Source: Shigella phage sb2. Taken from it: a stretch of 64,000 nt of DNA. The stretch lies in sequence record PQ666540; one strand, given 5' to 3'. Under the pieces are notes generated by a model that worked only from the letters and a program-made list of their open reading frames with translations, had not been told where the DNA came from and searched no databases. How positions within the stretch are numbered: the first letter of the stretch is position 1; each line of letters starts with the position of its first letter. Shown piece by piece: positions 30,286-30,924 of this stretch. The translations under genes were made by a program, and so were the position numbers.

Positions 30286-30473
30286 TATTCTTCTACGTGC
30301 TGTTTACGACCTTTCTTATCAATAAAGGTATATTCAACGAATGTTCCAATATAATCTTTATCTACATCATGTGGACTATTAATTGGGCATTTAGTACGGC
30401 AAATGCGTTCCCATTGACGAATAATTTCCACTTTGTTTTTAGGATCAAATGGATGCGGGTAATGTACTTTCAT
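30261..30473 (-). CDS. hypothetical protein
   Basis: 70-aa ORF. Confidence 0.4.
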   Translation of the reverse strand: MKVHYPHPFDPKNKVEIIRQWERICRTKCPINSPHDVDKDYIGTFVEYTFIDKKGRKQHVEEYCLKVTWL

Positions 30474-30924
30474 AATCCACCACTATTAAATCAATATCAG
30501 GAGTAAACATGTCGATTAATTTAGAAACCTTATCCCAATCACCGCCAGCAATACCGCAACCTATGCGTGGAATGTAAATTACTGGTTTAAACAAAAGGGT
30601 TTCTGCCTGTAGATTTAATTCTATCATGCAGTTTACTAAAGCACCATAATCAAGATTAGGACCCGGTTCGTATTGCGTATACAAATTATAGCACATACTA
30701 AATCCTGTAGGATTATGTTTAAAAACAATAGACATATCGCCTAATTTATCACGAGAACCGTACTCGGTAGTGGTTTTATCTATTTCTAAAATTTTGGGAT
30801 AGGCTCTTGCTAATTGACCTGCTACGCCAGAGCCCATTGTGTGGAAGCAATTACACCCGTGCGCAATAATATTACCTTGAAGAAATAGGGCGACAATATC
30901 GCCCTTGATATATTTTACAATCAT
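30445..30924 (-). CDS. macro-domain-like protein (putative ADP-ribose binding or hydrolase)
   Basis: 159 aa; GDIVALFLQGNIIAHGCNCFHTMGSGVAGQL and later IPRIGCGIAGG parallel macro-domain motifs. Confidence 0.55.
   Translation of the reverse strand: MIVKYIKGDIVALFLQGNIIAHGCNCFHTMGSGVAGQLARAYPKILEIDKTTTEYGSRDKLGDMSIVFKHNPTGFSMCYNLYTQYEPGPNLDYGALVNCMIELNLQAETLLFKPVIYIPRIGCGIAGGDWDKVSKLIDMFTPDIDLIVVDYESTLPASI

Follow-up and report, generated by a model that had tools for sequence, protein, structure and literature searches.

A tk.4 (adfM) ortholog in Shigella phage sb2: a stand-alone macrodomain probably directed against DarT2 through a glutamine-type active site

What does a small macrodomain do for a T4-like phage, and against what is it directed? 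The question is raised by Shigella phage sb2 (sequence record PQ666540), of which a stretch of 64,000 nucleotides was analyzed (the window, to which all positions refer). An ATG-initiated open reading frame (ORF) of 159 amino acids was listed there at 30445..30924 on the minus strand. From the letters alone, an original prediction had assigned this ORF to the macro domains, had placed it between tk and regB, and had proposed that its product could be a counter-defense factor or a regulatory eraser of ADP-ribose. Its coordinates and length held, the strand, which it had not given, being added here; both neighbors were identified by Pfam, and the motifs that it quoted are all present in the translation, namely GDIV (residues 8-11), IIAHGCNC (19-26), MGSGVAGQL (30-38) and IPRIGCGIAGG (118-128). 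We show herein that the ORF encodes a macrodomain and that, as judged by homology and synteny, it is the Tequatrovirus ortholog of T4 tk.4, recently renamed adfM. The best overall explanation of its function, to which we assign a probability of roughly three in four, is that this stand-alone macrodomain cleaves the thymidine-linked ADP-ribose put on phage DNA by DarT2, and does so by a glutamine (Gln)-type chemistry.

The assignment to the macro domains was borne out by a Pfam profile, by sequence matches to solved macrodomains and by a structural model. The profile search, where the prediction could have failed, returned Pfam Macro (PF01661) with 33.8 bits (E 3.7e-8; gathering score, 22), over positions 2-117 of the 118 in the profile. 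Among PDB sequences, phmmer recovered BT1257 (1e-10), yeast Poa1p (2e-9), SCO6735 (8e-8), M. tuberculosis DarG (5M3I; 2.5e-5) and human TARG1 (0.01). An AlphaFold2 model, built on 57 homologs with the T4 row left out of the alignment, was of high confidence (predicted local distance difference test, 94.8; predicted template modeling score, 0.89) and predicts the three-layer alpha/beta/alpha macro fold. When this model was compared with the PDB by Foldseek, 152 chains matched at E<=1e-3, the best 50 of the 152 being all macrodomains or designs on a macrodomain scaffold. The top ranks were taken by TARG1, Poa1p, BT1257, T. aquaticus DarG, M. tuberculosis DarG and SCO6735, and coronavirus Mac1 domains came next. 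The E values were 3e-9 for TARG1, 1e-8 for Poa1p, and 5e-8 (T. aquaticus) and 2e-7 for the two DarG proteins (template modeling score ~0.72). The two glycine (Gly)-rich loops of a macro domain are present (N25...G31-S-G33 and P119-R-I-G-C-G-I-A-G-G), and their key positions are invariant in the 57 homologs. The sequence and structure matches therefore place the protein in the ALC1/TARG1-like class of macrodomains. That this is not a chance ORF follows from the Pfam match, from its many homologs (795 proteins of the database at E<=1e-3) and from the purifying selection described below.

The protein is homologous over its full length to T4 Tk.4 (NP_049723.1; 58% identity over 155 amino acids, ungapped, E 8e-71), and the slot between vs and tk.3 that it occupies is common to the window, T4 RefSeq, Ec_MI-02, Shfl2, JK23 and Ge15. 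The two proteins belong to the same length class (159 versus 155 amino acids), and all 15 residues that are invariant in the family are present in T4 Tk.4. The original prediction missed this identity, although tk.4 was already annotated with an A1pp/macro motif. The T4 RefSeq entry (NP_049723.1) reads "phosphatase; contains A1pp phosphatase motif", a comparison of T4-like genomes had already given an A1pp match for tk.4 orthologs in 2006, and the gene is labeled "macro domain-containing protein" or "phosphatase" in many GenBank records. In our literature search for Tk.4, the A1pp domain match was found only in that comparative paper, and a function only in the HIDEN-SEQ preprint of November 2025, where tk.4 was the single significant hit of a T4 transposon library on a DarTG2 host (bioRxiv 10.1101/2025.11.20.689424). 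A clean deletion of tk.4 sensitized T4 to DarTG2, the gene was renamed adfM, and the authors, on the strength of its structural match with M. tuberculosis DarG, inferred that ADP-ribose is removed enzymatically from DNA (bioRxiv 10.1101/2025.11.20.689424). Plaque assays of a deletion on DarTG hosts, as proposed by the original prediction, thus match a published result, obtained with the T4 allele only, which is 58% identical to that of sb2. In earlier work, T4 lacking both adfA and adfN was still resistant to DarTG2; a further factor was therefore predicted. The gene is accordingly a known one, and its role in countering DarTG2 has already been published for the T4 ortholog.

The residues through which the protein would act were mapped by alignment. 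Invariant among the 57 members are G8, H22, G23, N25, C26, G33, A35, D49, N80, Y82, Q84, P119, G122, G124 and W130. In the first loop, H22 is aligned with H24 of SCO6735 and H23 of Poa1p, and N25 with N27 of SCO6735, N22 of DarG and N23 of PhiKZ gp104. In the second, G122 and G124 are aligned by phmmer with G126 and G128 of SCO6735, and A126 occupies the place of D125 in TARG1 and of F152 in Poa1p. Q84, in the motif NLYTQ, stands where DarG (FPTK, K80) and TARG1 (LITK, K84) have their catalytic lysine (Lys) and where SCO6735 has Gln85 (NMIGQ). This register was obtained from three independent alignments, namely from a MAFFT alignment with DarG, TARG1, PhiKZ gp104 and BT1257, from a phmmer alignment of a family member with SCO6735 (5e3b), and from the alignment of a family hidden Markov model (HMM) with six references, in which the row of PhiKZ gp104 is one residue off, so that the Lys/Gln correspondence is ambiguous for gp104 alone. 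The TARG1 sequence in the alignment agrees with PDB 2LGR over residues 2-152. As read from these alignments, the protein combines a Gln at the catalytic-Lys position of DarG and TARG1 with the asparagine (Asn) of the first loop (Q84 for Q85, and N25 for N27, of SCO6735), both of them invariant.

A Gln-type active site of this kind has been studied in SCO6735, a stand-alone macrodomain that efficiently removes thymidine-linked ADP-ribose from DNA and that rescued E. coli from DarT (PMC9411070). Its mutant Q85A was without any activity and N27S had nearly none, and a water-mediated mechanism was proposed, with Gln85 holding the distal ribose in position (PMC9411070). Activity is likewise lowered by N23A in PhiKZ gp104 (PMC13309987). 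T4-type AdfM thus most likely follows the chemistry of SCO6735 and not that of DarG. Because a Gln sits at the catalytic-Lys position, as in SCO6735, mutagenesis of T4-type AdfM should aim at Q84, N25 and H22, not at a lysine.

The family HMM scored its six references at 73 (BT1257, the best match), 65 (TARG1), 54 (SCO6735), 47 (M. tuberculosis DarG), 43 (T. aquaticus DarG) and 33 bits (PhiKZ gp104, the weakest). SCO6735 (Streptomyces coelicolor, PDB 5E3B) and BT1257 (Bacteroides, 2AFC/2FG1) resemble the phage protein in being stand-alone, in their length of ~150-160 amino acids and in their Gln at the catalytic-Lys position, and the phage protein keeps their H-x-C-N motif and PRIGCG(L/I)AGG-W loop. 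However, both are chromosomal bacterial proteins, the identity is only ~25-27%, and G23 of the phage protein corresponds to V25 in SCO6735. With the DarG macrodomain (T. aquaticus 5M31/5M3E, M. tuberculosis 5M3I) the protein shares the fold class, the Asn of the first loop and the presumed substrate, thymidine-linked ADP-ribose on single-stranded DNA. DarG was the only PADLOC model matched (E 3.4e-7) and the best NCBIfam match (E 6.6e-7), but the latter (NF048014) lay far under the model cut-off, at 28.9 versus 250 bits, and covered only positions 2-142 of 338. In addition, the catalytic Lys of FPTK (K80 of the T. aquaticus protein) is replaced by the invariant Gln in the MAFFT and family-HMM alignments, the C-terminal DarT-binding domain of the two-domain DarG proteins (~330-340 amino acids) is lacking, and an adjacent darT gene was not found, the neighbors of tk.4 being vs and tk.3. 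The tk.4 protein is therefore not a DarG, though it would act like a DarG macrodomain.

Among phage proteins, a parallel in role is offered by PhiKZ gp104, which bears the same name, AdfM, and is likewise a stand-alone macrodomain that counters DarTG2 (Cell Rep 2026, PMC13309987). This protein strips ADP-ribose from DarT2-modified DNA in vitro and is imported into the phage nucleus (PMC13309987). Unlike the tk.4 protein, gp104 is Lys-type and DarG-like (E 9e-25 to M. tuberculosis DarG, with the FPTK motif kept), and BLASTP aligned it to the tk.4 protein with only 27% identity over 33 residues (E 0.001). Given a T4-type (Gln) and a PhiKZ-type (Lys) lineage, phages seem to have recruited erasers of thymidine-linked ADP-ribose from at least two macrodomain lineages. 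Two phage macrodomains that are not orthologs thus go by the name AdfM, T4 Tk.4 (Gln-type, BT1257/SCO6735-like) and PhiKZ gp104 (Lys-type, DarG-like), which could mislead annotation transfer. The best structural matches, human TARG1/OARD1 (4J5R) and yeast Poa1p (6LFR), depart from the tk.4 protein at the active site. TARG1 removes thymidine-linked and also uracil-linked ADP-ribose, but its K84/D125 dyad is replaced by Q84/A126; Poa1p has the H-x-C-N-C motif in common with the tk.4 protein, but it acts as a phosphatase on ADP-ribose-1''-phosphate, and the tk.4 protein has an alanine in place of its F152.

In the mechanism that we favor, the DarT2 toxin of the host would ADP-ribosylate thymidines on single-stranded phage DNA and thereby block replication. 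The tk.4 protein would bind the ADP-ribose via its two Gly-rich loops and cut the thymine-ribose bond, releasing free ADP-ribose and restoring the template. Where DarG and TARG1 use their catalytic Lys, the invariant Q84, held by N25, would position a water molecule along with the distal ribose. The present analysis itself supplied the ORF, its fold, its orthology and conserved gene order, the mapped residues and the purifying selection; the phenotype of the T4 allele on DarTG2 hosts and the hydrolysis of thymidine-linked ADP-ribose by SCO6735 are taken from the literature, and the 58%-identical allele of sb2 would presumably play the same role by the same chemistry. Several points weigh against this reading. 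The support for T4 tk.4 in the HIDEN-SEQ preprint consists of genetics and structural resemblance only. The T4 allele, to which alone the phenotype belongs, differs from that of sb2 at 42% of residues, and its diphosphate loop reads GIGKGNW, as against GIAGGDW in sb2. The Tk.4 family is without K34 of SCO6735 and without the mobile loop with K89, longer by 5-6 residues, that follows the Gln in that protein (QYEPGPN in sb2 versus QHGMKTGSKGAP in SCO6735), S32 standing at the K34 position; the longer loop with K89 and K34 were tied by the authors to efficient activity on DNA (PMC9411070). Moreover, the residues were mapped from sequence alignments, and Poa1p, with its different activity, is among the nearest solved relatives.

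In comparison with T4, tk.4 departs from its surroundings. While rI, rI.1, tk, tk.1, tk.2, tk.3, vs, vs.1 and regB are 93-100% identical to their T4 counterparts at the amino acid level, tk.4 is just 58% identical. In 30-nucleotide sliding comparisons with T4, the identity falls from 29-30 of 30 to 12-25 of 30 only from ~30905 to ~30473, i.e., just in tk.4. The Gaprivervirus phage EAWsc9 has the reverse pattern, with a tk.4 that is 94.8% identical to that of the window and flanks that are 50-71% identical. A divergent tk.4 in T4-like flanks, together with a near-identical tk.4 in EAWsc9, indicates transfer of the allele between genera, by recombination in conserved flanking sequence. The ratio of non-synonymous to synonymous substitution rates (pairwise Nei-Gojobori), taken within the allele class, was 0.03-0.11, and the gene is therefore under purifying selection, not in an ongoing arms race at the level of residues. 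For the same reason, diversifying selection was rejected as the cause of the 58% identity to T4, allele replacement being preferred.

Several distinct clusters of tk.4 alleles exist, each of them abundant, and homologs were found in 2,767 of the 50,697 phage records, Straboviridae, Felixounavirus, Ackermannviridae and Vibrio phages among them. When a toxin partner was sought beside a bacterial homolog, the chromosomal copy of Pelagimonas was found alone among housekeeping genes, without a DarT neighbor; another homolog in this context check (P0090) proved to be located on a large phage-like contig. It is conceivable, though unlikely, that the divergent alleles swapped as gene-sized cassettes between genera are not functionally equivalent but are tuned to different DarT2 variants, through direct binding of the toxin such as catalytically dead SCO6735 exhibits, or to different base-linked ADP-ribose substrates (thymine on DNA versus uracil on RNA). 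If that were true, the tk.4 allele of each phage would help set which DarTG-type defenses it overcomes. Two further observations concern variation at this locus. The nearby tk.2 (29703..29888) is also mosaic, being 95% identical to T4 and JK23, 87% to Ec_MI-02 and 56-57% to Shfl2 and Ge15, with the genes around it >95% identical in those phages. In GenBank OL964745.1 (Escherichia phage T4, 159,752 bp), the tk.4 homolog aligns in two pieces at 53148..53544, annotated as two 'macro domain-containing protein' coding sequences, an indication that tk.4 is interrupted in this isolate or in its assembly.

Could the macrodomain protect the phage, or serve it, in some other way? Protection might come mainly from direct, stoichiometric binding and inhibition of DarT2 ('interaction-inhibition'), with hydrolysis secondary or absent. 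The catalytically dead mutants SCO6735 Q85A, DarG K80A and TARG1 K84A still inhibited DarT in vitro, SCO6735 most strongly (PMC9411070), and the co-circulation of several old, very divergent tk.4 alleles, exchanged between genera, would fit adaptation to variable DarT2 partners. Nonetheless, we regard this alternative as quite unlikely. The active-site residues are all invariant in the family, which favors catalysis and disfavors binding as the main mode; diversifying selection is not seen within the allele class; and in its 159 amino acids the tk.4 protein has no counterpart of the C-terminal DarT-binding domain of DarG. Alternatively, the protein may hydrolyze small ADP-ribose derivatives, acting as a phosphatase of ADP-ribose-1''-phosphate like Poa1p, as a deacetylase of O-acetyl-ADP-ribose, or by breaking down immune signals derived from ADP-ribose. 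In that case the DarTG2 phenotype would be either an indirect one or particular to the T4 allele. Both sequence and structure place Poa1p among the best matches, the invariant H22 is conserved as H23 of Poa1p and T29 is a conservative counterpart of its S30, and 'phosphatase' is the gene label in GenBank, RefSeq and PHROG (PHROG 335 matches the protein at E 4.8e-71), in keeping with the historical 'A1pp phosphatase' annotation. However, F152 of Poa1p, a mutagenesis target in the solved Poa1p structures, is not conserved but aligned to A126, and the NCBIfam model of O-acetyl-ADP-ribose deacetylase reached only 16.5 bits versus a cut-off of 291 (E 0.0058), so that this identity was rejected. The sole functional data on an ortholog point to DarTG2, and an activity on small derivatives is in our estimation very unlikely.

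T4-type phages themselves encode ADP-ribosyltransferases, and the macrodomain might accordingly erase the marks set by Alt, ModA and ModB, or ADP-ribose on RNA (uracil-linked ADP-ribose, RNAylation), and so regulate the timing of infection rather than oppose a defense. Uracil-linked ADP-ribose on RNA is indeed reversed by TARG1-like macrodomains, bacterial homologs included. Yet Alt, ModA and ModB are arginine-specific, and no macrodomain of this class is known to act on arginine-linked ADP-ribose. In the ORF listing of the window, a transferase gene adjoining tk.4 was not found. Moreover, tk.4 transposon insertions were fewer only on the DarTG2 host (bioRxiv 10.1101/2025.11.20.689424), and a role of this kind appears highly improbable. 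Of the two functions put forward by the original prediction, counter-defense is upheld by the need for the T4 ortholog on a DarTG2 host (bioRxiv 10.1101/2025.11.20.689424), while erasure of the arginine-linked marks of the phage's own ADP-ribosyltransferases finds no support. Cleavage of thymidine-linked ADP-ribose on DNA remains the preferred function of the tk.4 protein.

The window is a Tequatrovirus (T4-like) segment, and its part between 24 and 38 kb shares 96.7% identity with Shigella phage KNP5 and with Escherichia phage Ec_MI-02. The genes on the minus strand follow in the order regB, vs.1, vs, tk.4, tk.3, two small extra ORFs, tk.2, tk.1 and tk, and the features of the locus are collected in Table 1. 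The ATGA at the junction of vs and tk.4 is a predicted site of translational coupling, and the annotations of T4 and Ec_MI-02 show it too. At its other end, tk.4 of sb2 overlaps tk.3 because a 13-nucleotide gap relative to T4 lengthens the sb2 allele by a 4-residue C-terminal extension. The sigma-70-like sequence ahead of regB is, by its consensus match only, a candidate early promoter for the closely packed or overlapping run of regB, vs.1, vs and tk.4, and tk.4 is probably expressed early together with the other three. Inside the 5' end of tk.4, beginning 20 nucleotides past the start codon, a perfect 8-bp GC-rich hairpin (AGGGCGAU AUU GUCGCCCU) at 30887..30905 precedes a U-rich stretch. T4 has the hairpin unchanged, and the divergence between the T4 and sb2 alleles sets in at this point. 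The terminator-like hairpin folds no significantly better than shuffled sequences (z -1.44).

Table 1. Positions of genes, motifs and junctions at the tk.4 locus of the window
Feature	Position	Strand	Basis or remark
tk	28935..29516	minus	Pfam TK, 204 bits
Overlap of 29 nucleotides, tk.4 3' end and tk.3 start	30445..30473	minus	ORF coordinates and T4 alignment
Block divergent from T4, limits of the swapped allele	30473..30905	minus	30-nucleotide sliding identity
Loop 2, P119-R-I-G122-C-G124-I-A-G-G-D-W130, predicted diphosphate-binding loop	30535..30570	minus	Read directly; P119, G122, G124 and W130 invariant
N80-L-Y-T-Q84 motif	30673..30687	minus	Codons AAT TTG TAT ACG CAA read directly; N80, Y82 and Q84 invariant
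Loop 1, H22-G-C-N25-C-F-H-T-M-G-S-G33-V-A35, predicted ADP-ribose-binding/catalytic loop	30820..30861	minus	H22, G23, N25, C26, G33 and A35 invariant (57 members)
ATGA overlap, vs stop codon and tk.4 start codon	30921..30924	minus	Sequence read directly
regB	31807..32268	minus	Pfam REGB_T4, 230 bits
Candidate sigma-70-like promoter ahead of regB, TTTACT-17-TATAAT with upstream TG	32296..32324	minus	Consensus match 10/12, best in region

Some neighboring genes also differ from T4. In vs (30921..31241, minus strand), the part that codes for the signal peptide has a 7-bp deletion at 31205-31227 (CTGCGTC in T4, CTGCATC in Ec_MI-02). The T4 start codon consequently meets a TAG after 16 codons, and the longest in-frame ORF begins at an internal ATG, with MYRINFIFCLA replacing MTKILVLCIGLISFSASASA. 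The Vs protein of the window may thus be made without a signal peptide, or the deletion may be a sequencing error; in T4, vs matters for growth in minimal medium (bioRxiv 10.1101/2025.11.20.689424). T4 lacks the two small minus-strand ORFs between tk.2 and tk.3 (29885..30061 and 30058..30285), which Ec_MI-02, Shfl2 and JK23 do have. One encodes 58 amino acids (PHROG 3452), for which a Pfam match was not found, and the other 75 amino acids with a 'Phage zinc binding domain' (PF23895, 101 bits). About 5 kb away, at the position of T4 e.1/nudE.1, a Nudix hydrolase gene (PF00293, 51.6 bits; 35964..36419, minus strand) adjoins a lysozyme-like ORF (35433..35927). T4 NudE.1 is active on ADP-ribose according to the title of a 2002 paper, and the Nudix hydrolase could dispose of the ADP-ribose freed by the macrodomain. 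In a 110-kb phage-like metagenomic contig (L005; Logan ERR3585466), a Tk.4-family macrodomain lies ~4 kb from a gene for Pfam Acb5 (PF26761), at 1541..1888 and 6001..6447, with nucleotide-metabolism genes near, which hints at an early-gene cluster with possible anti-defense roles.

Since the role of tk.4 has already been reported for T4, the finding adds no new kind of system; what the present analysis refines is the Gln-type catalytic position (Q84) and the recognition of a swapped allele. tk.4 represents one layer of the anti-DarTG arsenal of the T-even phages, beside AdfA and AdfN. It is also an exchangeable cassette among T4-like genera, and as such it bears on the sequence-based prediction of the defense sensitivity of therapeutic T4-like phages.

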